Positions 11,719-61,872 of a DNA stretch of 64,000 bases are shown one piece after another. A model generated the notes under the pieces. That model saw nothing but the letters and a program-made list of their open reading frames with translations, did no database searches and was not told the origin of the DNA. Both the position numbers and the translations under genes were made by a program. The stretch covers positions 579,740 through 643,739 of the forward strand of contig OY970181.1 of assembly GCA_963708045.1 (NCBI GenBank), given 5' to 3'. This stretch comes from an uncultured bacterium (GTDB taxonomy: Bacteria > Patescibacteriota > Patescibacteriia > CAIQCM01). How positions within the stretch are numbered: the first letter of the stretch is position 1; the number at the start of each line of letters is the position of its first letter.

Positions 11719-11748
11719 CCCCTCCGATGATACATCGGAGGGGTTTTG
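11719..11748 (+). terminator. Rho-independent terminator
   Basis: cccctccgatg-atac-atcggagggg followed by tttt. Confidence 0.7.
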
Positions 11749-11753
11749 CGTTA

Positions 11754-11797
11754 TTTACACCCTCCCCCGAGTGCGGGGGAGGGGTTGGGGGAGAGGG
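11754..11797. repeat. GC-rich hairpin repeat (ccctcccccgagtgcgggggaggg family), left direct repeat flanking the DUF559 cassette
   Basis: ttacaccctcccccgagtgcgggggaggggttgggggagaggg. It is almost identical to 12262-12306. Related copies occur at 14953-14982 and, inverted and degenerate, at 12212-12250. Confidence 0.7.
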
Positions 11798-11808
11798 CAA
11801 CTCGTCTA

Positions 11809-12186
11809 ATGGATGTTATAATAATTTCTATGGCACCGATAATAAATACCAATAAATTATTGTCTCGTCGTCGTGATTTGCGCAAAAATCAAACAGAAGC
11901 TGAAAGATTATTTTGGGAAAAAGTAAGATGCGAAAGGTTTTTTGGTCTAAAGTTTAAACGTCAATACAGCGTCGGGTCGTATATTTTAGATTTTTATTGC
12001 CGTGAAAAAAATTTGGCGATTGAAATTGATGGTTCCCAACATATTAAAAATGCTGACTATGATAAAGAGCGAACTTTGTATTTAGAAAATTTTGGGCTTA
12101 CCGTTTTACGTTTTTGGAATAATGAAGTTATGAATAATATGGATGGAGTTTTGGAGGCGATACGGATTAAACTAGAAATTGAATAA
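11809..12186 (+). CDS. DUF559 / Vsr-like (very-short-patch-repair-type) endonuclease domain protein
   Basis: The RRDLRKNQTEAERLFWEKVR...YILDFYCREKNLAIEIDGSQH...LENFGLTVLRFWNNEV motif set is diagnostic of DUF559. The gene is AT-rich relative to its neighbours. The ORF-track start (11746) would include the REP hairpin, so ATG 11809 is chosen, with an alternative at 11830. Confidence 0.8.
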   Translation: MDVIIISMAPIINTNKLLSRRRDLRKNQTEAERLFWEKVRCERFFGLKFKRQYSVGSYILDFYCREKNLAIEIDGSQHIKNADYDKERTLYLENFGLTVLRFWNNEVMNNMDGVLEAIRIKLEIE

Positions 12187-15414: not shown

Positions 15415-18400
15415 ATGAACGCAGTTTCAAAATTAAAATTTTTTAGCGCTAACCACAAGGGGTTGGTTTTTGCTTTTTGTTTTGTTGTGGCCGTGCTTGC
15501 CTTTGTTGCCCTGCCGACGCATAAGGCAATGGCGGCGAACGGCGACATCGTTGTCAATGTTAAAGAAGAGCTGGGAAGCAATCTTGCTGGCGCGACAGTT
15601 GAAATTAATTGTAGCGGCGGCAGTTTTGTGGCCAACGTCGCCCCGACTGACGCTTCAGGTAATGTGACTTTTTTGGTGGCTGACCTTGGTGATTCTGGCG
15701 GCGCGACTCTTTATCACACGGCCGATTGCGACACTAATGCCGAGAGTATCACTTATCGTGTGTCCAAAGATGGATACGTTACTCAAACTACCGGTGGTGC
15801 TGACACATATTTAACGGGAGCCGAAACCGACAAAAATATCACCGGTGTTCAGTTCGCCTACAAACTCACAGCTGTCACAACCGAAGGACCGGGGACAAAT
15901 ATCACAGCGACACTTTCTTCGCTGGCGGTTGGCGCTTCTGGTGCAACCGACGCCTGTACTTTAAATGGCGGCGCTTGGTATTGTCCGGTAACACTCGCCC
16001 ATAGCGTGGGGCCGCTCATTGGCGTGCCAACGCAAGATGGTTATGTACAAGCCAATTACAATTTAGTTACTGGCACAACGCGTAGCGCTAACGCCGACGC
16101 GCAAGTTTCGGACACAATCAGCACGGTTCGTTTTTCCTATAAAATAACATCGGCGACGAGCGAAATCGGCACTAACATCACGGCAATTTTGACAACACTG
16201 AGAGTTGGCGACGATACGGCCACGAACGCTTGCACTTTCTCGGTTGACGCTTGGTATTGTCCAGTCATTCTCGCCAATAGCAACGGTACGCTTAAGGCCG
16301 ACCCAGTTAAAGAAGGTTATGTTCAAGCTGACCACAATTTGGTTCTGGGCACAACGCGCGTCGCGAGCTCTGACGCTCAAATAACTGATTCTTTCACTGG
16401 TGTTCAATATGCATACAAAATAACCTCTGCAACTTCTGAAGCTTTAGCAGTCAATCTTATTTCTACATTAAGCGCGCTTGCCGTTGGTGACGCGACCGCG
16501 ACCAACGCTTGTGAAACCTCGGGTGGCGCTTGGTACTGTCCGGTTGTTCTCGCAAATAGCGACGGCACGCTTCTTGGAGTTCCTACTCAAGACGGCTATG
16601 TGCAAACAAATTACAATTTGGTAATCGGTACAACTCGTGTTGCTAATAATGCATTGCAGATATCGGACACGATCGTTAATGTTCAATACGCTTACAAAAT
16701 TACTTCCGTTACAACCGAAGGCCCAGGCACCGAGCTCCGAGCCACCTTGTCTTCGCTCACGGTTGGCGATGATACCGCCAAAACCGCCTGTGCATTAAAC
16801 GGCACGACTTGGTATTGCCCGGTTATCCTTGCGAACAGCAATGGCACACTTGTCGGCGTGCCAACGCAAGACGGGTACGTATCGGGTGATGATAATTTGG
16901 TAATTGGTACAACGCGCGTTCTTAATACGGCGGCGCAAGTTTCGGACACAATTAGCACCGTTCGGTTTGCTTATAAAATAACCGCGGTTACGGCTGAGGG
17001 TCCGGGAACAAATATTACTGCGACACTGGTTTCGCTTGCAGTTGGCGACGATACAGCTACGACACTTTGTACTTTCAATGTTGCGACTTGGTATTGTCCG
17101 GTTATTCTTGCAAATAGCGATGGTACATTAATTAGTATCCCGATCAAAGACGGTTATGTGCAGGCTAATTATAATTTGGTTCTAGGCACGACGCGTCTTA
17201 CGGCCGCTGCGGCGCAAGTTTCAGATACAGTAACTGGTGTTAGATTTTCTTATAAAATCACTTCGGCGACGAGCGAAATCGGCACCAATATTACCGCAAT
17301 TCTTACGACGCTCGCGGTTGGCGACGATACGACAACAAACGCCTGTGCATTCTCGGTTGATGCTTGGTATTGTCCAGTCGTACTCGCGAACAGCAATGGC
17401 ACGCTAAAAGCCGATCCGGTTAAAGAAGGCTATGTTCAAGCCGACCATAATTTAGTTCTAGGCACAACGCGTCTTGCTAATCTAGACGCTCAAATTGTTG
17501 ATTCGTTTACTGGTGTTCAGTTTGCTTACAAAATCACTTCCGTAACTGCCGAAGGTCCTGGCACCAACCTTACCGCCACCCTCGCTGGTTTAGTTGTTGG
17601 TGATGTTACGGGAACCGATACCTGTATTTTAAACGGCGGCGCTTGGTACTGCCCAGTTGTTCTCGCAAATAGCGACGGCACACTTCTCGGCGTGCCAACG
17701 CAAGATGGTTATGTGGCGGCAAATAATAATTTAGTGATTGGTACGACTCGTGGCACAAATGCTGCCGCCCAAGTTTCTGACACAATTACTGGTGTTGATT
17801 TCGCTTACAAAATCACCGCCGTTACCACCGAAGGGCCTGGTACCAACCTTACAGCGACACTTTCTTCGCTCGTGGTTGGTGACGATACTGGTACAACGGC
17901 CTGTGCTCTTAACGGTGGTGCTTGGTATTGTCCGGTTTTGCTTGCAAATAGCGACGGCACGCTTATCGGCGTGCCAACGCAAGATGGTTACGTCGCGGCT
18001 AATAACAATTTAGTGATTGGCACGACGCGTATTACTAACGCTGCGGCGCAAGTTTCTGACACGATTAGCACGGTTAAATTCTCATACAAACTTACAGCCA
18101 TTACCACCGAAGGGCCTGGTACCAACCTTACAGCGACACTTTCTTCGCTCGTGGTTGGTGACGTGACGGGAACCAACGCTTGTATTTTAAATGGTGGCGC
18201 TTGGTATTGTCCGGTTTTGCTCGCGAATAGCGACGGTACGCTTATCGGCAATTTGGTTGAAGACGGTTATGTGCAGGCAAACTATAATTTGGTTAATGGC
18301 ACAACGCGCGCCGCGGCCGGCGATCCACAGCGCACTGAAACTATTAACACGGTTCAATTCGCTTATAAAATTACAGGAGCGACGACAGAAATTAGCACCG

Positions 18401-19929
18401 ACATTACCGCAATTTTAACAACGCTCGCGGTTGGCGATGATTCCGCAACCAATGCTTGTACCTTTTCGGTTGATGCTTGGTACTGTCCAGTTATTCTCGC
18501 GAACAGTAATGGCACGCTAAAAGCTGATCCAGTTAAAGAAGGTTATGTTCGGGCTGACCATAATTTGGTTCTAGGGACGACGCGCCTAACAAATACTGCT
18601 GCTCAAATTTCCGACACATTTACCGGTGTTCAATTTGCTTACAAAATCACTTCCGTAACCGCCGAAGCTATTGGCACTAACCTAACAAGCACATTAACGG
18701 GACTGCTTGTCGGAGATGCGACCGCAACCAATACCTGTGTTCTTAATACCGGCGCTTGGTACTGTCCAGTTGTTCTCGCAAATAGCGATGGCACACTTCT
18801 TGGTGTACCAACGCAGGATGGCTATGTTCAAGCAAATCATAATTTAGTTACTGGCACGACGCGCGTTGCAAATACTGATGCTCAGCGTTCAGATACAATC
18901 ACTAACGTTTTATTTGCTCTTAAAGTTACAATCCAGCGCGAAGGCGACAACGCGGCTGTGACCGGTTCTACGGTTACCGCTGACGGTCCGACGCTTTACG
19001 ACGTGACTTGCGCCGAAAATGGAACAACCGGCATTCATTATTGCGTTATTCCCGTGGCACAAACAGGAACGATTACGCGAATTGTTAATCCTTCGTTTAT
19101 TACAAAAACACTAAGCTATACCGACCGCACAACGCAAATCGGCGGCCAAGGTACGATGACCGCGGTTTTGAGCACTTCGGGCGATATCACTCCGCCGACG
19201 ATTACCGGCCAGACTCCGGCCGATGGCGCGACCGGCGTTTCAATTATTGTTTCGCCAACCATAACCTTTAACGAAGCAATGGATGCGGCGACGTTAAACG
19301 GTGGCACGATTCAAATTCGCAAATATTCCGACGATACTGCGGTTTCCGCTAGTCTTCTCTATAATCCTTCAACCTTCGTCGTGACGCTAACCCCGGTTGC
19401 AAGTCTTGTCTACAACACGCAATATTATCTCTATGTTGTTGGTGCAAAAGATGCCGCGGGCAATTCGGTAAGCACCGACTACGCAGCTGGCACAAAGAGC
19501 AGTCACGAATTTACAACGGTTGCCGAAGCCAACGGTTCGCTCGCGGTCACGGGCATTGATCGTATTAGCACCTATGCCGTTACTGGTGGCGATTATGCCA
19601 ATGGTTGGAAATGGACTTTCCACGTCACCGTTCCGACCACCGAAACATCATTTAAAATGAAATTCACTGACCTTGTGAGCGGAACTCATTCTATTGCGGC
19701 GGCAGCGAATATGCGTTTCTTTTCTTCGCAATCATCTAACGCGTACGATGAAAGCACGGCAATTAGCATTACTGTTGCCGAAGCTTATAGCTCAACAATG
19801 ACACTCAACGCTGATCTTAGTGCTGGCACAGCCGGTCGGCAAATAGACGTTACGATTGAGGCGCGCGTACCAACAGGAACGGCGGCTGGGTCATACTCAA
19901 CCAGTTACGGGATTCAAACGACGATTTAA
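15415..19929 (+). CDS. Giant secreted tandem-repeat surface protein (1504 aa): ~11 x 93-94-aa Cys-containing repeats plus a C-terminal SbsA-type Ig-like domain
   Basis: Signal peptide VFAFCFVVAVLAFVALPTHKAMA. The repeat consensus is YKIT..T.E..GTN.TA.L..L.VGD.T.T.AC.....AWYCPV.LANS.GTL...P..(D/E)GYV....NLV.GTTR......Q.SDT...V.FA. The C-terminus TPPTITGQTPADGATGVSIIVSPTITFNEAMD...YYLYVVGAKDAAGN is typical of an S-layer Ig-like domain. Confidence 0.8.
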   Translation: MNAVSKLKFFSANHKGLVFAFCFVVAVLAFVALPTHKAMAANGDIVVNVKEELGSNLAGATVEINCSGGSFVANVAPTDASGNVTFLVADLGDSGGATLYHTADCDTNAESITYRVSKDGYVTQTTGGADTYLTGAETDKNITGVQFAYKLTAVTTEGPGTNITATLSSLAVGASGATDACTLNGGAWYCPVTLAHSVGPLIGVPTQDGYVQANYNLVTGTTRSANADAQVSDTISTVRFSYKITSATSEIGTNITAILTTLRVGDDTATNACTFSVDAWYCPVILANSNGTLKADPVKEGYVQADHNLVLGTTRVASSDAQITDSFTGVQYAYKITSATSEALAVNLISTLSALAVGDATATNACETSGGAWYCPVVLANSDGTLLGVPTQDGYVQTNYNLVIGTTRVANNALQISDTIVNVQYAYKITSVTTEGPGTELRATLSSLTVGDDTAKTACALNGTTWYCPVILANSNGTLVGVPTQDGYVSGDDNLVIGTTRVLNTAAQVSDTISTVRFAYKITAVTAEGPGTNITATLVSLAVGDDTATTLCTFNVATWYCPVILANSDGTLISIPIKDGYVQANYNLVLGTTRLTAAAAQVSDTVTGVRFSYKITSATSEIGTNITAILTTLAVGDDTTTNACAFSVDAWYCPVVLANSNGTLKADPVKEGYVQADHNLVLGTTRLANLDAQIVDSFTGVQFAYKITSVTAEGPGTNLTATLAGLVVGDVTGTDTCILNGGAWYCPVVLANSDGTLLGVPTQDGYVAANNNLVIGTTRGTNAAAQVSDTITGVDFAYKITAVTTEGPGTNLTATLSSLVVGDDTGTTACALNGGAWYCPVLLANSDGTLIGVPTQDGYVAANNNLVIGTTRITNAAAQVSDTISTVKFSYKLTAITTEGPGTNLTATLSSLVVGDVTGTNACILNGGAWYCPVLLANSDGTLIGNLVEDGYVQANYNLVNGTTRAAAGDPQRTETINTVQFAYKITGATTEISTDITAILTTLAVGDDSATNACTFSVDAWYCPVILANSNGTLKADPVKEGYVRADHNLVLGTTRLTNTAAQISDTFTGVQFAYKITSVTAEAIGTNLTSTLTGLLVGDATATNTCVLNTGAWYCPVVLANSDGTLLGVPTQDGYVQANHNLVTGTTRVANTDAQRSDTITNVLFALKVTIQREGDNAAVTGSTVTADGPTLYDVTCAENGTTGIHYCVIPVAQTGTITRIVNPSFITKTLSYTDRTTQIGGQGTMTAVLSTSGDITPPTITGQTPADGATGVSIIVSPTITFNEAMDAATLNGGTIQIRKYSDDTAVSASLLYNPSTFVVTLTPVASLVYNTQYYLYVVGAKDAAGNSVSTDYAAGTKSSHEFTTVAEANGSLAVTGIDRISTYAVTGGDYANGWKWTFHVTVPTTETSFKMKFTDLVSGTHSIAAAANMRFFSSQSSNAYDESTAISITVAEAYSSTMTLNADLSAGTAGRQIDVTIEARVPTGTAAGSYSTSYGIQTTI
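15853..18925 (+). repeat. Intragenic tandem repeat array, unit 279-282 bp, with a 4-unit (~1116 bp) higher-order period
   Basis: Unit starts fall at about 15853, 16135, 16417, 16693, 16972, 17251, 17530, 17809, 18088, 18367 and 18646. Units 2, 6 and 10 (TSATSEIGTNITAILTTL...FSVDAWYCPVILANSNGTLKADPVKEGYVQADHNLVLGTTR) are near-identical. Units 3, 7 and 11 are likewise similar. DNA stretches 17825-17885 and 18100-18160 are nearly identical. Confidence 0.8.
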
Positions 19930-21079: not shown

Positions 21080-21120
21080 CGTAGCGTATAGGGGTTAGGG
21101 TATAGAGTATAGAAAAAAGA

Positions 21121-21151
21121 AAAAACCTCCGATTTTTATCGGAGGTTTTTT
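21121..21151 (+). terminator. Rho-independent terminator embedded in REP-like inverted repeat
   Basis: aaaaacctccg-atttttat-cggaggtttttt. It is flanked by the inverted arms tataggggttagggtatag / ctagcccctaaaccctataccctag. Confidence 0.7.
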
Positions 21152-21241
21152 ATTCTAGCCCCTAAACCCTATACCCTAGACGCTAATAGTAAGTTGAAAT
21201 AATCTTCTTTACGGAGTATTCTTATTAAACAATGCTATCCT

Positions 21242-23513: not shown

Positions 23514-24677
23514 GTGGAAGAAGAAATAAAAACTAAAAAATTTCCTCGGCGTTCTATTTTTGTCTTAGCGGTTGCGTTGCTTATTTTGGGCGCGGCGGTT
23601 TATTGCTATCCGCGCGCCGTTGCCGATCGCGCCGTTCCACCTTTGGTTGTAGAAAAAGCGCCGCGCACTAATCATCTCGCTGTCCCGTCCGAAGTCAGAG
23701 CAATTTATATCACGGCGGAAATGGCAGGAAATGAAAAAAGATTTTCGGAAGTTGTTAATTTGGGCAAAAGCCGCGGGATTAATTCTTTGGTGGTTGATCT
23801 AAAAAATGAAAACGGTTCGCTCGCATTTTTGCCCAAAAACGAAACGTTAAAAGCCGAGATTGGGAAAAATGTTCCGCTCGGCGACCTTGGTGTTTTTGCC
23901 GATAAAGTTCATGGCCTCGGTTTGTACCTTATCGCGCGAATGCCGGTTTTTGAAGATCCGAATTATGCAATTGGACATCCGGCCTTTGCCTTAAAACGTT
24001 CCGGCGGCAAACTATGGACTGACGCGAATGGTTTGGCTTGGCTTGACCCGGCTTCGGAAGACGTTTGGAAATATAATTCCGCCGTGGCGACGGAAGCGTA
24101 TACGCTTGGTTTTGATGAAATTCAGTTTGACTATATCCGTTTTGCGACCGACGGCGTAACCTCGGCGATCGTTTTTCCGGTCTATGACAAAAAGAAAGAA
24201 ACATACCGACAAGTTATTTCTCGTTTCTTTTCATTTCTTGATTCCGAACTTCGCGCCAAAGGAATTCCAATCTCGGCCGATGTTTTTGGTTTTGTTACTT
24301 GGCACCAGTCGGACTTGGGCATTGGCCAGTGGTACGACGACGCCATAAGAACGATGGATTATGTTTCGCCGATGGTTTATCCGTCGCATTATCCATCGGG
24401 CGTGTTACAATTTAAAAATCCGGCCGCTCACCCGTACGAAATAATCGCTGACTCTTTAAAAAAGGGGAACGAAGTTATTTCTTTGGCCGCGAAAGATCCG
24501 GATCTTAAACTTGCGACGCAACGTCCGTGGCTGCAAGCCTTTGATATGGGCGCCAAATACACGCCCGAGTTGATTCTGGCCGAAGTAAAAGCCAGCCGCG
24601 ACAATAACGCCTCCGGTTTTATGTTCTGGAACGCCAGAAACGATTACTCTAATCTGCCGGTACTTACTAATCTCTAA
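23514..24677 (+). CDS. Putative glycoside hydrolase-like protein (DUF4015/GHL TIM-barrel type), membrane-anchored
   Basis: 387 aa. An N-terminal TM helix (IFVLAVALLILGAAVYCY) is followed by motifs RAIYITAEMAG...GINSLVVDLKNENG...FDEIQFDYIRF, which resemble the putative glycosyl-hydrolase DUF4015 family. Confidence 0.45.
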   Translation: MEEEIKTKKFPRRSIFVLAVALLILGAAVYCYPRAVADRAVPPLVVEKAPRTNHLAVPSEVRAIYITAEMAGNEKRFSEVVNLGKSRGINSLVVDLKNENGSLAFLPKNETLKAEIGKNVPLGDLGVFADKVHGLGLYLIARMPVFEDPNYAIGHPAFALKRSGGKLWTDANGLAWLDPASEDVWKYNSAVATEAYTLGFDEIQFDYIRFATDGVTSAIVFPVYDKKKETYRQVISRFFSFLDSELRAKGIPISADVFGFVTWHQSDLGIGQWYDDAIRTMDYVSPMVYPSHYPSGVLQFKNPAAHPYEIIADSLKKGNEVISLAAKDPDLKLATQRPWLQAFDMGAKYTPELILAEVKASRDNNASGFMFWNARNDYSNLPVLTNL

Positions 24678-24708
24678 TTTCAAATCTCTAATCTCTAATT
24701 CCAAAAAT

Positions 24709-30330: not shown

Positions 30331-32427
30331 ATGCCAAAAGATTTTATTTTACCTTCAAACGAGTCGCTCGCGCCGATTGATTTTTCGGCCGCGCTTAATG
30401 CGGAACAGCTCGCGGTTGTTAAAGGCGCCGACGGCGCGAGTTTGGTTATTTCTGGCGCTGGATCGGGCAAAACGCGGACAATTATTTATCGGGTGGCATA
30501 TTTGCTGAGCCTTGGCGTGCCGGCCGAAGAAATTTTACTGCTAACTTTTACGAACAAAGCGGCGCGGGAAATGCTTTCGCGCGTTCAAGAATTGCTGGGC
30601 GGCGTCTCGGGCAAACTCACGGGCGGCACTTTCCACCACGTCTGCAATTTGTTGCTTCGCCGCTATGCGCCGCTTATTGGTTTTAAAAATAATTTTTCTA
30701 TTTTAGATCAAGAAGATTCGCGCGACCTGCTTAATGCTTGTATTAAAGACGAGGGGATAGACACTAAGCAAAAGCGTTTTCCCTCGGCTGGCGTTCTCCA
30801 GTCTTTTTGGAGTTTTTGCCGGAACGCGCGGCTGCCGTTTTCGGAAGTTGTTGAATTAAAAGCGCCGCGACTTCAAGCTGAAGTTTCTAAAATGGAAGCG
30901 GTTATTAGTGCTTACGAAAAGCGCAAGCAAGACGCGAACGCGATGGATTTTGACGATTTGCTTTGCCGCGCGACCGATCTTCTGCGCCAGAATCCGTCGG
31001 TGCGCGAGCACGTCGCAGGTGGTTATCGCTATGTGCTTGTAGACGAATATCAAGACACCAACCGCGTGCAAGCCGAATTTTTATCGCTCATCTCTTCGGT
31101 TCACAATAATTTGTTAGTCGTTGGCGATGACGCGCAGTCAATTTATTCGTTTCGCGCCGCGGACATAAAAAATATTTTATCCTTCCCCGAACGCTATCCG
31201 GACGCGAAGGTTTTTAAATTGGAAACCAATTATCGTTCCGTACCGCCGATTTTAGATTTTGCGAACGAATCAATAAAAAATAACGCCAAGCAATTCGCAA
31301 AAGTTTTACGGCCAGCCAACTTGCAACCTGAAACCTGCAACCTGCAACCAAATATAATAACCGCGGCGAGCGCCGAAGAAGAAGCGGAGTTTATCTGCGG
31401 AATGATTGAAAAAATGGTTAAAGAAGGAACGCCGCTAAGCGAAATCAGCGTTCTATTTCGCGCCACCTTTCATTCACAGGCGCTGGAATTTGCCTTAACA
31501 AAACGCGGTCTGGCCTATGATTATCGCGGTGGCATTCGTTTTTTTGAACGCGCTCACATTAAGGATGTAATTTCTTTTTTACGAATTCGTGAAAATCTTG
31601 ATGACGAAATTGCTTGGCTTCGTGTTTTGCGTTTGCAAACCGGCATTGGCACCGAAACAGCCTCAAAAATTTTTTCCGCCTGCCGCGGTTTTGAAAAATT
31701 TGAAGAAGCGCTCGCGGCCGGCGCCGCGGGAATGGGGGATCGCGCTAAGGGCGGTTGGAATGATTTTGCCAATTCGGCGACTTCAATGATCGCTGCTGGC
31801 GGAAGCCCGTCCGACGCAATTAGGGCGATTATCAAATCGGCCTATGGCGATTATTTGGATAACGAATTTCCCAACGCCGATGAGCGGCGCGAAGATCTTG
31901 AACAGTTGGCCGTGTTCGCGGAAAAGTACGCCTCGGTTGGCGCTTTTCTTTCCGACAGTGCTCTTACTGAAGGATTTAATATTGATGCTAGTGCTAGTAC
32001 AAATGAAGATCGGCTGGTTCTTTCCACGATTCATCAGGCCAAAGGTTTGGAATGGGACGCGGTTTTTGTAATGCATCTTTATAACGGCGCTTTCCCGCAC
32101 GCCCGCGCTTACGAAGAGGATGATGGGCTAGAAGAAGAACGCCGGCTGTTTTATGTAGCTGCGACGCGCGCCAGAAAAAATCTTTTTCTTTCCTATCCGC
32201 TTACGGGCGGCCGCGGCGAAGATTATTTGCACGAGATGTCACCATTTTTACGTGAACTGCCCGCAACCGTTTACGAAGAAATTGTTCTTCGCCGCGCGAG
32301 TGCCTCGGGAAGCACGGTATTTAAAGATGATTTTTTTGAAGAGGAAGAAATTGACGTTCTTGATCAGCAGTCTCCAGAGAACAAAGACAAAGATTGGAAA
32401 AAGAAGTCTTTTCTCGGTAATTATTGA
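30331..32427 (+). CDS. uvrD: ATP-dependent DNA helicase, UvrD/PcrA/Rep family (SF1)
   Basis: LNAEQLAVV...LVISGAGSGKTRTIIYRVAYLL has helicase motifs I/Ia. VLVDEYQDTN is motif II. VGDDAQSIYSFRAA is motif III. The C-terminal LVLSTIHQAKGLEWDAVFV and LFYVAATRARKNLFLSY are motifs V/VI. An internal mini-repeat is LQPETCNLQPN. Confidence 0.9.
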   Translation: MPKDFILPSNESLAPIDFSAALNAEQLAVVKGADGASLVISGAGSGKTRTIIYRVAYLLSLGVPAEEILLLTFTNKAAREMLSRVQELLGGVSGKLTGGTFHHVCNLLLRRYAPLIGFKNNFSILDQEDSRDLLNACIKDEGIDTKQKRFPSAGVLQSFWSFCRNARLPFSEVVELKAPRLQAEVSKMEAVISAYEKRKQDANAMDFDDLLCRATDLLRQNPSVREHVAGGYRYVLVDEYQDTNRVQAEFLSLISSVHNNLLVVGDDAQSIYSFRAADIKNILSFPERYPDAKVFKLETNYRSVPPILDFANESIKNNAKQFAKVLRPANLQPETCNLQPNIITAASAEEEAEFICGMIEKMVKEGTPLSEISVLFRATFHSQALEFALTKRGLAYDYRGGIRFFERAHIKDVISFLRIRENLDDEIAWLRVLRLQTGIGTETASKIFSACRGFEKFEEALAAGAAGMGDRAKGGWNDFANSATSMIAAGGSPSDAIRAIIKSAYGDYLDNEFPNADERREDLEQLAVFAEKYASVGAFLSDSALTEGFNIDASASTNEDRLVLSTIHQAKGLEWDAVFVMHLYNGAFPHARAYEEDDGLEEERRLFYVAATRARKNLFLSYPLTGGRGEDYLHEMSPFLRELPATVYEEIVLRRASASGSTVFKDDFFEEEEIDVLDQQSPENKDKDWKKKSFLGNY

Positions 32428-39672: not shown

Positions 39673-40197
39673 ATGGCAAAAACTAGATTACAAAAAGAAC
39701 AAACGCTTGCCGACTTAACGGCGGCTTTTGTGTCTTCAAAATCGGCCGTGATCGTGAACTACCAAGGGCTTAAAGTTAAGGAAGCCGAAGAGCTCCGTCG
39801 CAAGGCCGAAAAAGAAGGTATTGGTTACGTTGTCGCTAAAAAGACTTTGATCACCAAAGCGCTTAAGGCGGCCGGAACCGAATACGACGTGACCGCGCTT
39901 GGCGGTATGATCGGCGTCGCAACGTCCAAAGACGAAGTTGCCGCCGCTCGTTTGCTTGCGGAATTTAGCAAGGCACACGAGTCAATGAAGATTTTAAGCG
40001 CGGTTGTTGATGGCAAAATCATTAACGCCATCGGTGTTCAGGCGCTTGCGTCACTCCCGTCGCGTGAAGTTCTTCTTGCCCAGGTTGTTGGCACGATCAA
40101 CGCTCCAGTTTCTGGATTCGTTAATGTTCTTGCCGGCAATCTTCGCGGCCTTATGAACGTTCTTAATTCAATTAAGGACGCTAAAGTCGCCGCCTAA
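39673..40197 (+). CDS. rplJ: 50S ribosomal protein L10
   Basis: MAKTRLQKEQTLADLTAAFVSSKSAVIVNYQGLKVKEAEELRRKA... is the canonical L10 N-terminus and length (174 aa). Confidence 0.95.
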   Translation: MAKTRLQKEQTLADLTAAFVSSKSAVIVNYQGLKVKEAEELRRKAEKEGIGYVVAKKTLITKALKAAGTEYDVTALGGMIGVATSKDEVAAARLLAEFSKAHESMKILSAVVDGKIINAIGVQALASLPSREVLLAQVVGTINAPVSGFVNVLAGNLRGLMNVLNSIKDAKVAA

Positions 40198-40242
40198 TTC
40201 CTTATTCTAACCTCTAACCTCTAACCTCTAATCTCTATAAAT

Positions 40243-40647
40243 ATGTCAGACGAAAAGAAAGAAGTGATCGTTCCTGAAAAGTTCACGTCGATCGTCAAAT
40301 CGATCGAAGAGCTTTCGGTACTCGATCTCTCGGAGCTCGTTAAAACGCTTGAAGAAAAGTTCGGCGTTTCCGCCGCCGCCCCAGCCATGATGATGGCCGC
40401 CGCTCCGGCTGCTGCCGCCGCCGCGGTTGAAGAAAAGTCCGAATTCACCGTTGAACTCACCGACGCTGGCGCGAACAAGATCAACGTGATCAAGGCGATT
40501 CGCGAAGTTACTCAACTTGGTCTTAAAGAAGCCAAGGACATCGTTGACAGCGCACCTAAGGTTGTAAAGGAAGGCGTACCGAAGGCCGATGCCGAAGTCT
40601 GGAAGAAAAAGATGGAAGAAGCAGGCGGCAAGGTAACCTTGAAATAA
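40243..40647 (+). CDS. rplL: 50S ribosomal protein L7/L12
   Basis: It has an Ala/Pro hinge ([22 protein letters not shown]) and the C-terminal domain [67 protein letters not shown]. Confidence 0.95.
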
Positions 40648-43673: not shown

Positions 43674-43759
43674 AACACACGTCATGAACCTTGTACCATG
43701 TACCACGTACCATACGGATGGTTCATGGTTCATTGTCCATGGTTCATGTTCCATAAAAT

Positions 43760-47371: not shown

Positions 47372-48379
47372 ATGTTCATAAAAAAGATTGCCATTGATCT
47401 CGGAACAACCAGCGTTTTGGTCTACGTGCCAAAGCGCGGTGTTGTTATAAACGAACCGTCGGTCGTGGCGATTTCCACAATTGATAAAAAAATAATGGCC
47501 GTTGGCAAAGAAGCTAAAGAAATGCTCGGCCGCACGCCGGACACGATTGTTGCCGTGCGTCCGCTAAAGGACGGCGTTATTGCCGACTACAAAACGACCG
47601 AGGCAATGCTTAGATATTTTATCAACAAGGCTGTTGGCGGTTTTCGTTTGTTTCGTCCCGAAGTAATGGTCGCCGTTCCGGGCGGGATCACTTCCACTGA
47701 ACGTCGCGCCGTTATTGACGCAACGATCGCCGCAGGCGCGCGCGCCGCTTATATCATCAAAGAACCAATTGTGGCTGCCATTGGTGCCGATATTCCGATC
47801 GGTTCGGCTTCCGGCCATATGATTATTGACATTGGCGGCGGCACAGCCGAAATCGCGGTCATCTCCTTGGGCGGCATTGTCGCATCCGACTCGGTCAGAA
47901 TCGGCGGCAATAAATTTGATCTGGCGATTGCCGAACATATTCGCCGCAAGTACGGACTCGCGATTGGCGAACGTACGGCCGAAGACATTAAAATCAACAT
48001 CGGCTCGGCGCTTTACTTGGACGACAAGCTCACAATGGAAATAAAAGGCCGCGATATGGTTTCTGGTCTGCCAAAAAATATCACCGTTACTTCCGAAGAC
48101 GTGACTGATGCGATCTCGGACGAGCTTCAGGGAATTGTCGCCGCGATTAAAGAAGTAATGCACCGAACGCCGCCCGAACTTTGCGCCGACGTGATGGAAA
48201 AGGGGATGATGATGTCTGGCGGTTCGTCTTTGCTCCGAAATATTGACCAGCTTTTTGGCCAAGCCATCGGCGTTCCGTGCTACGTTGCCGACGATTCGCT
48301 CTACTGCGTCGTTAAAGGCACAGGCATTGCGCTGGAAAATCTTGAAAGCTACAAGCGCTCAATTTTGGCTACAAGATAG
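47372..48379 (+). CDS. mreB: Rod-shape determining actin-like protein MreB
   Basis: The phosphate-1 loop is IAIDLGTTSVLVYV...GVVINEPSVVAI. Also present are DIGGGTAEIAVISLGGIV, SGGSSLLRNIDQL and VADDSLYCVVKGTG. The start is adjusted to MFIKK (47372). Confidence 0.9.
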   Translation: MFIKKIAIDLGTTSVLVYVPKRGVVINEPSVVAISTIDKKIMAVGKEAKEMLGRTPDTIVAVRPLKDGVIADYKTTEAMLRYFINKAVGGFRLFRPEVMVAVPGGITSTERRAVIDATIAAGARAAYIIKEPIVAAIGADIPIGSASGHMIIDIGGGTAEIAVISLGGIVASDSVRIGGNKFDLAIAEHIRRKYGLAIGERTAEDIKINIGSALYLDDKLTMEIKGRDMVSGLPKNITVTSEDVTDAISDELQGIVAAIKEVMHRTPPELCADVMEKGMMMSGGSSLLRNIDQLFGQAIGVPCYVADDSLYCVVKGTGIALENLESYKRSILATR

Positions 48380-48480
48380 GGTTTAGCGTATAGCGTATAG
48401 GGGATAGAGTTTTTTCTACACCCCTAAACCCTATACCCTTGACCCTATACCCTAAAGCTCGTCGTTATTTTTTTAATTTT

Positions 48481-49668: not shown

Positions 49669-49729
49669 GTACCTAGGATAAAGTATTTAATCCAAATTCC
49701 TAAAACTCTATACCCTATACCCAAAACCC

Positions 49730-50815
49730 TTGACCCTAAACCCTATGCTCATCGGAATAGACGCCTCGCGCGCCGAGGCAAAAATTAAAACTGGCGTTGA
49801 GCGGTATTCGTTTGAACTAATCCGCGCGCTGCGCGCTTCTCTTCCGATGAACACGGAGGTTGTTTTGTATTCGCGCGTGCCGCTAAGTTCCGAGCTCGGA
49901 CCGTTTAACGAAAATTGGAAAAACGTCGTTTTGAGCTGGCCGCCCAAGCGGCTTTGGACGCAGTTTCGTTTAAGCTGGGAAATGTTTCGCCGCCCGCCGG
50001 ACGTCTTGTTTATTCCAAGCCACGAATTGCCGCGGATTATCGCGAAAAAAACAGTGAAGACAGTACACGACGCGTTTTTTATGGATAATCCGAAAATGTT
50101 TCCGTGGCACGAGCGAATATTTTTAAAGGCAAGCCTTTTTGATTCTTGCCGCCGCGCGAACACAATTATTGTTCCGTCAAATTTTGTAGCGCAGCAAATC
50201 AATAAATGGCGAAAGGAAAATGTTACAGTTATACCTCATGGCGTCAGAGTTTCTCGTATGTCAGATCCACAAGCCACAAGCTACAAGCCACAAGCCTACT
50301 TTATTGTCCTAGGGCGGATTGAAAAAAAGAAAAATTTGGACGTTGTGATTGATGCCTTTAATGAATTTGTAAAAAATCACCCCGACTACAAATTATATTT
50401 TGTCGGACGCTTTGCAAACGGCGCGGAAGAAATTGTAAAACGTGCACAAAAAACCGCCGCCATAAAGAATATTGAATTTTTGGGCGCGCTACCTGACGCC
50501 GAGATGTTTTCTTTAATGAAGGGTGCAGTCGCCTTGCTTCACCCTTGTCCGTATGAGGGGTTTGGTCTGCCAGCGATTGAAGCAATGTCTTTAGGCGTGC
50601 CCGTCATTGTCGCTGCTGAAGGCGCAATTGCCGAAGCCGTGGGCGACGCCGGCCTTAGCGCCCCGCCCTTTGATGCGGCTAAATGGGCCGAAGCGATGAA
50701 CCAGATCACTTTTGATATTTTTAGAAAAAATTTAATAGAAAAAGGTTTAGCTCGCGCAAAAGATTTCACCTGGCCAAAATCCGCCGCCCAAACTTGGCGT
50801 GCACTTATTGGTTAG
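49730..50815 (+). CDS. Glycosyltransferase family 4 (group 1)
   Basis: The C-terminal GT-B motifs are GRIEKKKNLDVVIDAF, LLHPCPYEGFGLPAIEAMSLGVPVIV and E..G. An internal tandem nucleotide repeat (ccacaagccacaagctacaagccacaagcc) encodes PQATSYKPQA. Confidence 0.85.
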   Translation: MTLNPMLIGIDASRAEAKIKTGVERYSFELIRALRASLPMNTEVVLYSRVPLSSELGPFNENWKNVVLSWPPKRLWTQFRLSWEMFRRPPDVLFIPSHELPRIIAKKTVKTVHDAFFMDNPKMFPWHERIFLKASLFDSCRRANTIIVPSNFVAQQINKWRKENVTVIPHGVRVSRMSDPQATSYKPQAYFIVLGRIEKKKNLDVVIDAFNEFVKNHPDYKLYFVGRFANGAEEIVKRAQKTAAIKNIEFLGALPDAEMFSLMKGAVALLHPCPYEGFGLPAIEAMSLGVPVIVAAEGAIAEAVGDAGLSAPPFDAAKWAEAMNQITFDIFRKNLIEKGLARAKDFTWPKSAAQTWRALIG

Positions 50816-58219: not shown

Positions 58220-58981
58220 ATGAATGGCGAAAAATTACTTTTTGGCAATTGGAAAATGAATGTCGCGCCGGAGCCGGGGAGTGTTCTTGCAAAAGCGCTT
58301 ATAAAAGTTAAGACCGCGTCCACGGTTAAGGTCGCAGTTTTCCCGTCGTTTCTTTCGCTCCCGACGATTTGCGAAGAACTTAAGGATAGCGTTGTCGGTG
58401 TTGGCGGCCAAGACTGTTTTTGGGAAGCGCGCGGCGCTTATACAGGAGAAATTTCTCCAAACGAGATTGCTGCTTGTGGTGCAAAGTATGTTCTTATTGG
58501 GCACTCGGAACGGCGCGGAAGTCTTGGTGAAACTTCGGCAATGGTCAATAAAAAAATAAAAGCCGCCCTTGCCGCCGGCTTAACGCCCGTCCTTTGTATT
58601 GGCGAACGCGCATCCGATCGCGCTTCTGGAACGTGGCCGGTTTTTTTGGAGCGCGAACTTAAAGATGGTTTGGACGGAGTGGATATTTCTGGAACAACGC
58701 AAATTATTATTGCCTATGAGCCGATCTGGGCGGTCGGCACGGGTAATGCTTGTGAACCTAACGATGCTGTGAGCGCTCATCTACTGATCGGTAATTACCT
58801 TTATGAACTTTTCGGCGAAGAGCGGAAGCAAAATAATTTTTCCGTCATCTATGGCGGAAGCGTTGACGCCGAAAATATTAAATCTTATTTTGAGCGCGAC
58901 GAAATTCAAGGCGCGCTCGTTGGCGGCGCGTCGCAAAAGTGGCCGACGTTTTGGGCGATGCTAAAAGCGATAAGCGAATAA
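58220..58981 (+). CDS. tpiA: Triosephosphate isomerase
   Basis: Motifs FGNWKMN, IGHSERR, AYEPIWAVGTG and YGGSV are present. Confidence 0.95.
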   Translation: MNGEKLLFGNWKMNVAPEPGSVLAKALIKVKTASTVKVAVFPSFLSLPTICEELKDSVVGVGGQDCFWEARGAYTGEISPNEIAACGAKYVLIGHSERRGSLGETSAMVNKKIKAALAAGLTPVLCIGERASDRASGTWPVFLERELKDGLDGVDISGTTQIIIAYEPIWAVGTGNACEPNDAVSAHLLIGNYLYELFGEERKQNNFSVIYGGSVDAENIKSYFERDEIQGALVGGASQKWPTFWAMLKAISE

Positions 58982-58983
58982 AA

Positions 58984-59778
58984 ATGAATTTTTTTTCATT
59001 AGCACTTTACTTGGTTGGTATACTTTTTGTTCTGGCCGGAATTATAATTCTGGCCGCGATTTTTTGGTCGCGTCGCCGCACGATCGCGCTCATTGACGTT
59101 AAAACCGTTCCCGTTGATAAGACCGAGCGAATGAAAGAGCAAATCGTGGCTGAACGCATTTTGCGAAAGATCGCCTTAATGACAAAGCCGGTCAAAGAAA
59201 AAATTAATCCCGTCTGGGAATTTTTTCAGAACCGGTTTCGTCGTCTCGCAAAAGTTGCTTTTGATATGGAAAAAAGAAGCGAACGGTTGGCGCGGGGAAG
59301 TTGGGACGCGCTCACGGCCGGAACCAGGATGCACGCGACGCTGACTGAGGCCGATAAACTTGCCAAGGAAGGAGAGTATGTCGCGGCTGAGAAGAAATAT
59401 ATGGATGCGCTCTCTTTAGACATTAAAAACCCCAAACTTTATGAGCGGCTCGGTGCGATGTACATTCGTGCCAAGTCGTACCCAGAAGCGCGCGAAACTC
59501 TGCGCTATGCCTCGCGGTTGTCGCCGAACGACGCCTCGGTCGTGGCCGCGCTCGGCGAAGTCGCAATCGCACAAGGGGAGTATGCCGACGCGATTACCTA
59601 TTTTGAGCACGCCGCCCAAATTCGCCCACGCTCGCCAAAGTATTTAAACTTCCTTATTCAAGCCTGTATCTTAGGGAAAAACAAAGTTTTGGCCGAGGAT
59701 GCGCTTAATCGTTTAGCCGAAGTAAACCCCGAAAACGCCAAACTTCAGGAACTTGATAAAAAGATAGGGGAGATGTAA
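58984..59778 (+). CDS. Membrane-anchored TPR-repeat protein
   Basis: An N-terminal TM helix (LALYLVGILFVLAGIIILAAIFW) is followed by 3-4 TPR-like helical repeats (AEKKYMDALSLD...YERLGAMYIRAKSYPEARETLRYASRLSPNDA...). The start is adjusted to MNFFS (58984). Confidence 0.65.
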   Translation: MNFFSLALYLVGILFVLAGIIILAAIFWSRRRTIALIDVKTVPVDKTERMKEQIVAERILRKIALMTKPVKEKINPVWEFFQNRFRRLAKVAFDMEKRSERLARGSWDALTAGTRMHATLTEADKLAKEGEYVAAEKKYMDALSLDIKNPKLYERLGAMYIRAKSYPEARETLRYASRLSPNDASVVAALGEVAIAQGEYADAITYFEHAAQIRPRSPKYLNFLIQACILGKNKVLAEDALNRLAEVNPENAKLQELDKKIGEM

Positions 59779-59844
59779 TATGGCCAAATAGCCAATAGCT
59801 AATTGCTAATGGTTATTATGTTTATTGAAAATCTAAGAAACAAT

Positions 59845-59917
59845 GCCGACGTAGCTCAGTTGGTAGAGCGCGTCCATGGTAAGGACGAGGTCATCGGTTC
59901 GATCCCGATCGTCGGCT
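59845..59917 (+). tRNA. tRNA-Thr (anticodon GGU)
   Basis: Manual cloverleaf. Acceptor is gccgacg/cgtcggc. D arm is gctc-agttggta-gagc. Anticodon stem is cgtcc/ggacg with loop atGGTaa. T arm is atcgg-ttcgatc-ccgat. CCA is encoded. Confidence 0.85.
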
Positions 59918-59951
59918 CCAGAAAAAAATCAACCCCGCGTAGTGGGGATTT

Positions 59952-60036
59952 TGGGCAGGTACCGAAGCGGTCAAACGGGGCAGACTGTAAATCTGCTGGC
60001 CTTGTGCCTTCATAGGTTCGATCCCTATCCTGCCCA
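59952..60036 (+). tRNA. tRNA-Tyr (anticodon GUA), type II with long variable arm
   Basis: Acceptor is gggcagg/cctgccc. Anticodon stem is gcaga/tctgc with loop ctGTAaa. A long variable arm is present. The T loop is ttcgatc. Confidence 0.8.
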
Positions 60037-60040
60037 GTGC

Positions 60041-60113
60041 GCCGCCTTAGCTCAGTTGGCAGAGCAACGGTTTTGTAAACCGTAGGTCCGCGGTTCGAGC
60101 CCGCGAGGCGGCT
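60041..60113 (+). tRNA. tRNA-Thr (anticodon UGU)
   Basis: Acceptor is gccgcct/aggcggc. D arm is gctc-agttggca-gagc. Anticodon stem is acggt/accgt with loop ttTGTaa. T arm is cgcgg-ttcgagc-ccgcg. Confidence 0.85.
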
Positions 60114-60154
60114 ATTGCCAAATATTACGAATTACGCTATTATTCCGATTCCCT

Positions 60155-60307
60155 ATGTCACAAGAAAATTTGATTAAAATGGAATGTACCGAATGCAAAC
60201 GCGTCGGTTATTATTCCACAAAAAACAAGAAGCTTAAGACCCGCATTGAACTGGCTAAATATTGCCGTTGGTGCAAAAAGCATACTCCGCATAAAGAGAC
60301 GAAATAG
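60155..60307 (+). CDS. rpmG: 50S ribosomal protein L33
   Basis: The 50-aa [53 protein letters not shown] is not in the ORF track because it is short. It has the L33 zinc-ribbon pattern (CxxC...CxxC) and a conserved HKETK end. Confidence 0.85.
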
Positions 60308-60795
60308 CACGTGGCGCGTGGCACGTTGCTCGTCGCATCGGGTCCTAATTCATAAAATATCGCCCGCCTAAAGCGGGCGGTTGAGTTTAAGCAATGTTTA
60401 GATTTGAAGAGTTGGACATTTGGAAAATGGGCGTTGAATATACAAAGAGGTGTTATTATGTCGCCAATAATTTTCCAATAAATGAACGCTTTGCCTTAGC
60501 CGATCAATTAAGAAGAGCCGCTGTGTCAATACCGACAAACATCGCCGAGGGGAGCATCGGCTCCAACAAGGAGTTTTGTAGTTTTTTGAATATCGCTTCT
60601 AGATCTGGTATTGAAACGGTAAGTTTACTTATAGTTGCAGAGAAACTAGGATACATTACAATGGAAGAGCGAATGAGGTTTTATAATGAAGCCGAAATAT
60701 TGATTCGTAAAATACGGTCATTAAGGCGCGTATGTCTTAACGGCACGTAGCTCGTAGTGCGTGGCACATGGTACGACGTGCAACGCGCCACGTGC
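60308..60795. mobile_element. ~490-bp inserted element with terminal inverted/direct repeats, carrying a four-helix-bundle ('23S rRNA IVS protein') gene between rpmG and tRNA-Trp
   Basis: The left end cacgtggcgcgtggcacgttgctcgtcgca and the right end gcacgtagctcgtagtgcgtggcac...acgcgccacgtg share a 12-nt perfect inverted repeat (cacgtggcgcgt/acgcgccacgtg) plus direct similarity. The element sits exactly where rpmG and tRNA-Trp are usually adjacent. Confidence 0.55.
60394..60750 (+). CDS. Four-helix-bundle protein (TIGR02436 / 23S rRNA-intervening-sequence protein family)
   Basis: FEELDIWKMGVEYTKRCYYVANNFPINERFALADQLRRAAVSIPTNIAEGSIGSNKEFCSFLNIASRSGIETVSLLIVAEKLGYI matches the family signature (FE.L.VW......Y.....FP..E.Y.L..Q.RRAA.SI..NIAEG). 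Confidence 0.85.
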   Translation: MFRFEELDIWKMGVEYTKRCYYVANNFPINERFALADQLRRAAVSIPTNIAEGSIGSNKEFCSFLNIASRSGIETVSLLIVAEKLGYITMEERMRFYNEAEILIRKIRSLRRVCLNGT

Positions 60796-60809
60796 AACAT
60801 GCAAAATAC

Positions 60810-60880
60810 GGGGGCTTGGTGAAGTGGTATCACAAAGGTCTCCAAAACCTTCGTCGGAGGTTCAATCCCTCCAGCCCCTG
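60810..60880 (+). tRNA. tRNA-Trp (anticodon CCA)
   Basis: Acceptor is gggggct/agcccct (one G-U pair). D arm is gtga-agtggta-tcac. Anticodon stem is aaggt/acctt with loop ctCCAaa. T arm is ggagg-ttcaatc-cctcc. Confidence 0.8.
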
Positions 60881-60883
60881 CCC

Positions 60884-60918
60884 AAACAACCATCCTTAAT
60901 CGGATGGTTGTTTGTTTT
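60884..60918 (+). terminator. Rho-independent terminator after tRNA-Trp
   Basis: aaacaaccatcc-ttaat-cggatggttgttt followed by gtttt. Confidence 0.7.
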
Positions 60919-61002: not shown

Positions 61003-61872
61003 CTAAAAGCCTTTGCATGCGCTGTACTCTGCGTCACAGCTATTCCAACACGCATATTTGCGGTCGGCGTTTGCTTGAATGCCGTAAGTTGGCGCGTCGC
61101 ACGCCCGGCGACAATTTATTTTTTTAATAGAGCAGTCGGCGGAACTGCGCCCTCCGCTATTTCCAAACGACGGCGTTGGGGTGCTGGAAAAATCAAACGG
61201 TGTCGGCGCAGAAGGTACGAACATTGGCGCAGAAGGTACGAACATCGGAGGGGGTGGCAGAAAGTCAAATCCGCCATATGCAGGAAGCGATGGAAAAGTG
61301 GGTGCGATTGGCGGGGCGACATAGGTTGGTTGGGGTCGGTATGTGCTCTTTGGTGGGATGACCGAACTAGATGTCTTAACCAAAGAGATTGTGCCACTGC
61401 CGGCAAATGTCGGTTGGGGCGGGGGCATTGGCACGCCCATGATGGCGCCGAGATTTGCGGAGATATCGCTCGTCATAAGAGACTGCAGTTGGTACGAACC
61501 ACTGGCTGATTTGCTTCCGCGAGGAAGGTTGATCGTGTAATAGGTGGTCGTTTTTATGAAAGCGTCGGTCGGGCTTGGTGGCGGCGCGCTCGCAACATAC
61601 AGCACGCCTTCTTTGTACGACACGCCAACGATGAGGTTGAACCCGCTAATTATTGACCCGCTTTGACAGCTGAGGTAGGACTCAACGGTCACCTGGTTTG
61701 CCGTTTCTTTGATTATCCAAAACGGCGAATTGCCAAGTTGGGCATTTGTCATGGTTTCGGGGTCAATGCCAGTTCTGGTAATCTGCCATGTTCCGGTGAT
61801 GGTTTGGGCTTGGGCCGAGTAGCAGAAACACGCGGCCAGCAGCAATAAGGCGGGGACGATTAACTTCTTCAC
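61003..61872 (-). CDS. Secreted proline-rich protein, probable lipoprotein, with Cys-rich C-terminal module
   Basis: The signal peptide has a lipobox-like LAAC (MKKLIVPALLLLAACFCYS). The central segment is Pro-rich (PPPSPTD, PMPPPQPTF, tandem PMFVPSAP x2). The C-terminus has 8 Cys (CSIKKINCRRACD...YACWNSCDAEYSAC). GC content is higher than the surrounding sequence. Confidence 0.6.
   Translation of the reverse strand: MKKLIVPALLLLAACFCYSAQAQTITGTWQITRTGIDPETMTNAQLGNSPFWIIKETANQVTVESYLSCQSGSIISGFNLIVGVSYKEGVLYVASAPPPSPTDAFIKTTTYYTINLPRGSKSASGSYQLQSLMTSDISANLGAIMGVPMPPPQPTFAGSGTISLVKTSSSVIPPKSTYRPQPTYVAPPIAPTFPSLPAYGGFDFLPPPPMFVPSAPMFVPSAPTPFDFSSTPTPSFGNSGGRSSADCSIKKINCRRACDAPTYGIQANADRKYACWNSCDAEYSACKGF

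Follow-up and report, generated by a model that had tools for sequence, protein, structure and literature searches.

A four-helix-bundle gene with the design of an rRNA intervening sequence between rpmG and tRNA-Trp in Patescibacteriota, and its association with short-period repeat arrays

A gene for a four-helix-bundle (4HB) protein of 118 amino acids lies between rpmG, which encodes ribosomal protein L33, and the tRNA-Trp gene in an uncultured member of the Patescibacteriota. We analysed 64,000 nucleotides of its contig OY970181.1 (assembly GCA_963708045.1), hereafter the window, in which positions are numbered from 1. Together with complementary arrays of tandem heptamers on its two sides, the gene makes up a unit at 60307-60802. 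On balance we favour, with modest confidence, the reading that this unit is a gene cassette of the intervening sequence (IVS) type that resides in a tRNA / ribosomal-protein transcription unit and not in an rRNA gene. The IVSs of rRNA genes and their conserved open reading frame (ORF) were already known in the early 1990s. The unit and its immediate surroundings comprise the following features.

60115-60143, + strand: putative promoter-like site before rpmG, TTGCCA-17-TATTAT, 10 of 12 consensus matches
60155-60307, + strand: rpmG, ribosomal protein L33, 50 amino acids (PF00471, E=1.4e-16; TIGR01023, E=1.6e-13)
60307-60340, + strand: 5′ arm, the 5′ strand of the closing stem, about five heptamers (CACGTGG CGCGTGG CACGTTG CTCGTCG CATCGGG)
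60361-60381, + strand: GC-rich 7-bp hairpin, CGCCCGC-loop-GCGGGCG, 13 nt upstream of the ATG
60394-60750, + strand: 4HB gene, 118 amino acids, PF05635/TIGR02436
60743-60769, + strand: sub-terminal direct heptamers (GCACGTA GCTCGTA GTGCGTG GCACAT), overlapping the 4HB stop codon
60769-60802, + strand: 3′ arm, the 3′ strand of the closing stem, reverse-complement heptamers (…ACGACGT GCAACGC GCCACGT GCAACAT GC)
60809-60884, + strand: tRNA-Trp (CCA), 62.8 bits
60883-60914, + strand: terminator-like hairpin, 13-bp stem and T tail, directly 3′ of tRNA-Trp

The product of 60394-60750 matches PF05635, the 23S_rRNA_IVP family (E=1e-28; 100.1 bits, cut-off 33.8), and also TIGR02436 (E=5.3e-27; 94.2 bits, cut-off 24), the family that a preliminary description made from the letters of this DNA had supposed. 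Its nearest solved structure is 2GSC, the protein XCC0516 (E=6e-16, residues 5-111), from which we carry over, by analogy, the assumption of a homopentameric toroid. The GxxRxxxSxxxNxxE motif noted for PF05635 (PMC3936711) is present as R41-x3-S45-x3-N49-x2-E52, complete except for the leading G, whose place is taken by Q38, a residue invariant in the subfamily. Across 59 homologues Q38, S45, N49 and E52 are unchanged. A phmmer search of all six-frame ORFs of the window returned only 60394-60750 and no second PF05635 gene, and no rRNA was found in the window. A role in defence was rejected, as no PADLOC defence-system model matched the protein at E<=0.01.

The preliminary description had placed a repeat-bounded element at 60308-60795. 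Such a unit exists, although those limits are slightly short: its first base is the final G of TAG, the rpmG stop codon, which directly abuts the 5′ arm, and it ends 6 nt before tRNA-Trp. The terminal 12-mer quoted at that time is part of a longer inverted repeat between 60307-60326 and 60776-60795, which is 95% complementary over 20 nt and 83% over 29 nt. Even when up to three mismatches are allowed, the arm 20-mer occurs at just these two sites in 64 kb, where shuffles expect 0. Folding of 60296-60808 pairs 60307-60340 with 60769-60802 through 29 pairs and five 1x1 mismatches. This spacer fold has a z of -3.8, with none of 100 shuffles equally stable, and the flank-to-flank duplex of the cassette has a z of -4.6.

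Both arms are period-7 tandem arrays (NGCACGT and its reverse complements), the 3′ flank has a lag-7 self-identity of 0.63, and an alignment of six orthologues maintains the heptamer register after the TAG. The direct sub-terminal similarity reported before was confirmed, in that the sub-terminal heptamers repeat the 5′ arm in direct orientation (60305-60335 against 60748-60778, 31 nt, 74%). The unit therefore reads direct array, ORF, direct array, inverted array, an order that yields both the long-range stem and the direct sub-terminal similarity; an alternative local hairpin at the 3′ end is also possible (60743-60767 with 60771-60795, 25 nt, 72%). The small hairpin at 60361-60381 is kept in six orthologues, with compensatory changes at two pairs, and may protect the 5′ end or act as a weak attenuator.

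The cassette is probably co-transcribed with rpmG and tRNA-Trp, because rpmG is preceded by a promoter-like site, the + strand of the unit itself yielded none, and tRNA-Trp is followed by a terminator-like hairpin. Judged by its sequence, 60115-60143 is the likely start of the rpmG / 4HB / tRNA-Trp transcript, and the relative L189 has a matching site (TTGCCA-17-TATCAT). In this transcript the 4HB gene and its small 5′ hairpin would be set in the loop of an imperfect stem of ~29 bp, formed by complementary arrays of about five heptamers each. By analogy with 23S rRNA IVSs, the stem would be an expected target of RNase III, and its cleavage would release the rpmG mRNA, the 4HB mRNA and the pre-tRNA-Trp from one another. 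This would account for why two essential genes can tolerate the cassette between them.

This anatomy closely recalls the IVS of Coxiella 23S rRNA, a sequence of 428-444 nt in which terminal repeats pair as a stem of 28 bp that RNase III cuts in vitro; upstream of its S23p ORF lie tandem GACAGAT heptamers, in numbers that vary between strains (PMC4990558). ORFs of PF05635 have also been seen in 16S and 23S insertions of the candidate phyla radiation (PMC11270868). Like the Coxiella IVS, and that of Leptospira, the window cassette is an insert of ~430-500 nt in a stable-RNA transcription unit with a stem of nearly 30 bp; like that of Coxiella, it has a PF05635 ORF in the loop, variable-number tandem heptamers upstream and a patchy distribution among relatives. 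Unlike rRNA IVSs, it lies between rpmG and tRNA-Trp and not in a 23S or 16S helix. Moreover, whereas the Coxiella ORF is reported to be decaying and is probably untranslated, the window ORF is under strong purifying selection, with ratios of nonsynonymous to synonymous substitution (dN/dS) of 0.02-0.09. Cleavage by RNase III, which was shown for the Coxiella IVS, is predicted for the window cassette from this likeness.

Orthologues whose proteins are 55-95% identical lie between rpmG and tRNA-Trp, a position that we call site B, in all contexts recovered (L001-L026, L107, L109 and L190 in our numbering of loci). These relatives include metagenome-assembled genomes (MAGs) of Candidatus Buchananbacteria, near which they place the genome of the window, and several share the TIM and TPR genes that precede the locus in the window. 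The site-B 4HB proteins are monophyletic in a tree, and their orthology spans a clade whose TIM proteins are merely 40-55% identical. Across equal divergence the 4HB proteins are 74-76% identical and the TIM proteins 52%. The dN/dS of the window gene against L002 is 0.024, at a dS of 0.92, and that of the site-B genes of L008 and L011 is 0.09. The protein is under strong purifying selection and, being kept by selection, has some cellular function; it would be made and would perform something that the cell retains. The window copy is, on these sequence comparisons, an old, vertically inherited resident. The proposal that an IVS-type element sits outside rRNA at this locus thus stands in its anatomy, which matches that of ORF-bearing 23S IVSs, and in the polymorphism of the site described below. 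Its suggestion of a recent selfish colonisation does not stand, since the gene is orthologous over a deep clade and evolves under the constraint just given.

All site-B lineages are flanked by period-7 arrays, with a unit that varies by lineage: GCACGTG in the window, GGCAAAT in L008 and L011, mixed units in L017 and TCGCAAA in L022. No relative carries the gene without repeat-defined boundaries, although in the most distant ones these are weak. Pairing between the flanks beats shuffles across lineages (z from -3.3 to -6.9) and in the nearer relatives is best between cognate arms. The 5′ arms of L001 and L002 differ by exactly 14 nt, which is two heptamers.

The site is polymorphic, and so is a second position in the tRNA cluster upstream of rpmG, which we call site A. 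The remaining features of this region in the window are as follows.

58220-58981, + strand: TIM
58939-59778, + strand: TPR protein
59845-59920, + strand: tRNA-Thr(ggt), intact here
59952-60037, + strand: tRNA-Tyr
60038-60040, + strand: site A, empty, a 3-nt spacer between tRNA-Tyr and tRNA-Thr(tgt)
60041-60113, + strand: tRNA-Thr(tgt)

A host tree based on TIM and TPR groups the window with L189 (clade 1) and places L027 and L017 as a pair with L008, L011 and L190 in clade 2. Site B is filled in the window, L004, L008, L011, L017 and L190. The comparison with empty sites that the preliminary description had proposed found the cassette absent from L189, the nearest long relative of the window, and from L027, the sister of L017 (88-92% protein identity). 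The spacers of these two share homology, each having a GC hairpin and a T run followed by GCTATTGC, and bear no relation to the cassette. A precise empty site was not seen; the L027 and L189 spacers look like a swap of spacer types and not like clean excision. We infer that two alternative types of site-B spacer circulate, consistent with exchange by way of the conserved rpmG and tRNA flanks. These flanks are 88% identical in nucleotide sequence across clades and could serve as homology arms for exchange between lineages.

Site A measures 3-4 nt in the window, L017 and L027. In L004, L189 and L190 it is occupied by a heptamer-armed cassette of ~420-530 nt with a different 4HB protein, orthologous among the three (81-91% identity) and ~35% identical to the site-B protein. 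Because relatives have merely 3-4 nt at this position, the arms of the site-A cassette came with the ORF. Further unrelated 4HB genes occupy site A in L020/L022/L049, in L088 and in L050, so that at least three unrelated 4HB lineages occur there. The 33-nt spacer of L008 and L109 carries a footprint: its first 20 nt correspond to the beginning of the 5′ arm of the site-A cassette, with an alignment score of 21-23 where shuffles reach at most 13.5. Close relatives show every one of the four possible combinations of filled and empty sites A and B.

L001 has a third 4HB gene upstream of rpmG, with a 3′ flank (TTATCGG TTATAAG TTATTAG TTATAGG) that ends a few bases before the rpmG start codon; L002, whose site-B protein is identical to that of L001, lacks this gene. 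Relatives thus carry 4HB cassettes at the tRNA-Tyr/tRNA-Thr junction and just upstream of rpmG, and these are not orthologous to the window copy. Taken together, the alignments suggest a discrete unit, one that lineages acquire, lose and replace in the course of evolution.

Two other kinds of insertion were seen in the same tRNA cluster. In the P0002-type lineage (L007, 1072-1476; L010, 952-1356) a gene of the PDDEXK_5 nuclease family lies between tRNA-Thr(tgt) and rpmG, where other relatives have just a promoter spacer of ~40 nt. Five relatives have a conserved and highly structured insertion of ~200 nt directly after the anticodon of tRNA-Thr(GGU), a gene that lacks the insertion in the window (L011, 3262-3460; L027, 2025-2222; L189, 2003-2194; L008, 2899-3106; L017, 2288-2486). 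This insertion resembles a group I intron in its seven covarying pairs, in its terminal G and in the U·G pair found at its 5′ junction; no Rfam family, including the group I intron model, matched it at E<=1.

The association between 4HB genes and heptamer arrays extends well beyond this locus. A scan of metagenome contigs with the 59-homologue alignment recovered 80 loci with 81 4HB genes, which share 37-76% identity with the query. Within 100 nt of these ORFs the density of lag-7 arrays is 6.93 per kb, and in the remainder of the loci it is 0.40 per kb, an enrichment of 17-fold. Lags 5, 6 and 9 remain at 0-0.2 per kb both near and far from the ORFs, and lag 8 gives 1.03 near and 0.14 far. At least one flank of 63 of the 81 genes holds a heptamer array, both flanks do so for 34, and 41 of 76 flank pairs form a duplex with z <= -3. 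Tandem Repeats Finder (TRF) reported 157 arrays in the flanks, of which 93 have period 7, 26 period 14 and 7 period 21 (126 combined); those of period 7 have a median copy number of 4.1 and diverse unit sequences. What recurs beside other 4HB genes is therefore the type of repeat. The Gelidibacter (Bacteroidota) 4HB gene at L192 5870-6531, between the OEP and MFP genes of a TetR-OEP-MFP-RND efflux operon, also has complementary arms (z = -3.8), with a period of 8 and not 7.

The earlier statement that this family is typically found in rRNA IVSs and introns was not upheld. Rfam scans found no rRNA beside homologues at any of 40 metagenomic loci checked; homologues adjoin tRNAs at 8 of the 80 loci, and most lie between protein genes. 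The tRNA junctions include tRNA-Pro/tRNA-Arg (L108, L116), tRNA-Ser/tRNA-Ser (L122) and tRNA-Arg/tRNA-His (L144). In L108, a MAG labelled Omnitrophica, the order is tRNA-Pro, arm-4HB-arm, tRNA-Arg. Small GIY-YIG genes of this locus (2021-2287 and 3169-3408) alternate with tRNA genes and the 4HB cassette, and the first of them has the direct repeat cggggcgtgccccgttacaaatttcagagtgttg on both sides. Homologues are co-oriented with the upstream neighbour in 51 of 64 cases and with the downstream neighbour in 42 of 59; this differs significantly from 50% but does not clearly exceed the same-strand bias common among bacterial genes, and we do not use it as evidence.

Genes of the 23S_rRNA_IVP family have been described wedged in cas operons, for example between cmr3 and cmr2 (PMC3936711). 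The window gene resembles these and XCC0516 (2GSC) in family, in the RxxxSxxxNxxE motif and in being wedged among unrelated operon genes. Flanking inverted arrays of short period, present here at 63 of 81 homologues, set it apart from the published XCC0516-type genes, for which we found none described. Literature searches on PF05635 genes together with heptamer repeats or tRNA spacers returned just the Coxiella case, part of them being swamped by unrelated matches; the searchable literature yielded no description of a general association of PF05635 genes with inverted arrays of short period, nor of such genes in tRNA clusters.

Heptamer arrays are also found in the window away from the gene, where there are ~20 of them, of many unit types and nearly all in intergenic spacers. 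The window has 19 lag-7 segments and only 0-2 for each of the lags 5, 6 and 8-11. Units include TGGTTCA, ATTAGAT, TAGAGAT, CCCTATA, TCTAACC and CCACAAG. Many of the arrays consist of an array and its complement, which form an ORF-less hairpin, often between unrelated same-strand genes, so that the arms of the cassette are not the element-specific terminal inverted repeat for which they had been taken. The arrays are located as follows.

2445-2491: heptamer array
4712-4756: heptamer array
5170-5270: heptamer array
5413-5493: heptamer array
6069-6155: heptamer array
7232-7266: heptamer array
21082-21189: heptamer array
24660-24707: heptamer array
31311-31359: heptamer array
40191-40244: heptamer array
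43683-43756: heptamer array
48373-48459: heptamer array
49702-49746: heptamer array
50258-50302: heptamer array
59783-59821: heptamer array

The hairpins at 5413-5493 and 6069-6155 flank a gene for an extracytoplasmic function (ECF)-type sigma-70 factor (5535-6062). They share a segment of 50 nt, made up of loop and 3′ arm, that is 88% identical, and are direct-orientation copies of one element.

Two known classes of dispersed repeats invite comparison. The short tandemly repeated repetitive (STRR) sequences of cyanobacteria are tandem heptamers of several unit sequences scattered in intergenic regions. The window arrays are alike in being intergenic tandem heptamers of several unit types, in a different phylum; we know of no report that links STRR sequences to PF05635 genes. 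REPtrons consist of a gene for a RAYT, a transposase associated with repetitive extragenic palindromes (REPs), flanked by inverted copies of a class of hairpin-forming repeat that is also dispersed between genes. The REPs of a genome share one sequence, and RAYT is a Y1 transposase. In contrast, the heptamer units vary between sites, and the 4HB protein has no known catalytic motif.

Several observations weigh against the cassette reading. No target-site duplication was found at 60307 or 60802, no recombinase or transposase was found in the unit, whose sole ORF is the 4HB gene, and no further copy of the arms was found in the 64-kb window. A transposon or miniature inverted-repeat transposable element with terminal inverted repeats is accordingly not supported: transposase and duplication are absent and the arm 20-mer is unique to this unit in 64 kb. 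Given the ~20 arrays in the window, the arms could be generic intergenic punctuation. In L022 and L025, the most distant relatives, the short arms have no pairing advantage over non-cognate ones. At site B, losses are sufficient to explain the pattern. A survey of rpmG/tRNA-Trp spacers, which drew on L027-L106, found tRNA-Trp shortly after rpmG (3-106 nt) at 24 of 55 Patescibacteria loci, in keeping with the direct succession that the preliminary description had assumed; this does not extend to 28 of the 55, where unrelated genes occupy the junction (279-2076 nt), among them AI-2E transporters, inositol-1-phosphate synthase, MazG, NUDIX, GIY-YIG and DUF1189. A gene at the rpmG/tRNA-Trp junction is therefore not unusual per se.

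Much of this would be accommodated if the 4HB gene were an ordinary resident that has never been mobile, if its flanking hairpins were generic punctuation (terminators, stabilisers or processing sites) and if its absences were deletions. The orthology of a strongly conserved gene at one site over a deep clade fits such a history, as do the hairpins between unrelated same-strand genes, the ordinary genes at the junction in 28 of 55 loci and the missing transposase and target duplication. So do the ORF-less repeat hairpins that several 'empty' rpmG/tRNA-Trp spacers contain elsewhere in Patescibacteria. However, generic punctuation does not account for the 17-fold enrichment of period-7 arrays beside 4HB genes in unrelated contexts, and other small inserted genes (PDDEXK_5, GIY-YIG, DUF559) were not consistently found with heptamer arms. 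Nor would a gene that was never mobile be expected as at least three unrelated lineages at one inter-tRNA junction, with another beside rpmG, or at site A, where relatives have 3-4 nt and the arms hence arrived with the ORF. We regard this explanation as unlikely.

A further point against the cassette reading concerns the level at which the arms are kept complementary. In 45 arm alignments, mismatches that would read as G·U pairs number 56 on the sense RNA and 67 on the antisense strand (p = 0.37). Without an asymmetry, there is no signature of selection on arm complementarity in the sense transcript, and complementarity may instead be kept at the level of DNA, for example by array turnover or by conversion between arms. 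This result leaves unchanged the physical expectation, drawn from the rRNA IVSs, that the stem would be a substrate for RNase III.

The strand symmetry of the mismatches is what would be seen if the arrays, as DNA or single-stranded DNA, were made, maintained or moved by a process that involves the 4HB protein, loosely in the manner of REP/RAYT, with the ORF-less hairpins as its products or footprints. Such a process could also be reflected in the dispersal of arrays in the window, including the two hairpin copies beside the sigma factor gene, in the footprint at site A and in the variable copy number of arrays (L001 and L002; Coxiella, PMC4990558). The protein family, furthermore, includes Avd, the nucleic-acid-handling partner of the reverse transcriptases of diversity-generating retroelements (DGRs) (PMC10053308). 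Away from 4HB genes arrays reach 0.40 per kb in the 4HB loci and 0.41 per kb in the window, against 0.17 per kb in 80 random Patescibacteria rpmG loci, a comparison that is confounded by taxonomy. On the other hand, the units are not the same at every site, an argument against sequence-specific recognition; PF05635 has no known nuclease or recombinase motif, and binding is a supposition. We consider a DNA-level process of this kind distinctly unlikely.

Kinship with Avd also raises the question of whether the 4HB protein is itself a DGR accessory protein. The two are distant members of the same 4HB superfamily; PF05635 covers Avd-like proteins, and there is a weak match to the NCBIfam model DivGenRetAVD (E=0.0066). 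The score with that model, however, is 16.8 bits where the cut-off demands 80, and no pair of template and variable repeats is present anywhere in the window. The neighbours of the 4HB gene are rpmG, tRNA-Trp and unannotated minus-strand ORFs, with no reverse transcriptase among them. A DGR role was rejected at this locus and has, in our judgement, a negligible probability.

A few other features of the window may be recorded. The minus-strand ORF just downstream of tRNA-Trp (61003-61872) encodes a proline-rich product of 289 amino acids without a Pfam match, and contains a perfect tandem duplication of 21 nt, two copies of GGCGCAGAAGGTACGAACATT, at 61205-61245. An ORF of the DUF559 / restriction-endonuclease-like type (11746-12186, 146 amino acids, E=1.8e-38) lies without heptamer arms between two very large ORFs. 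The ORF at 15415-19929 (1504 amino acids) has at least 11 tandem repeats of 279 nt (93 amino acids) at 15838-18929, with 60-80% identity, and probably encodes a repetitive surface protein.

Returning to the IVS-type cassette, its significance is that the design known from rRNA IVSs is found outside rRNA, in a tRNA / ribosomal-protein unit, with a protein that is clearly under selection. A wider conjecture, which we hold to be improbable at present, is that PF05635 proteins and arrays of short period (7-8 nt) constitute one widespread system across Patescibacteria, Omnitrophota, Bacteroidota and Gammaproteobacteria. Its pentamer would bind, maintain or mobilise arrays of about five units, in a manner reminiscent of REP/RAYT. 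One hairpin would house the gene, and ORF-less hairpins, including ORF-less rRNA IVSs and STRR-like repeats, would be products or footprints. If, that conjecture aside, the association of this design with most sampled homologues holds, the 'IVS' would represent a particular form of a more general gene cassette, and short-period arrays would be a testable candidate ligand or partner for the very large PF05635 family, DGR Avd included. The ORF-less heptamer hairpins of bacterial intergenic regions would then have a possible origin.

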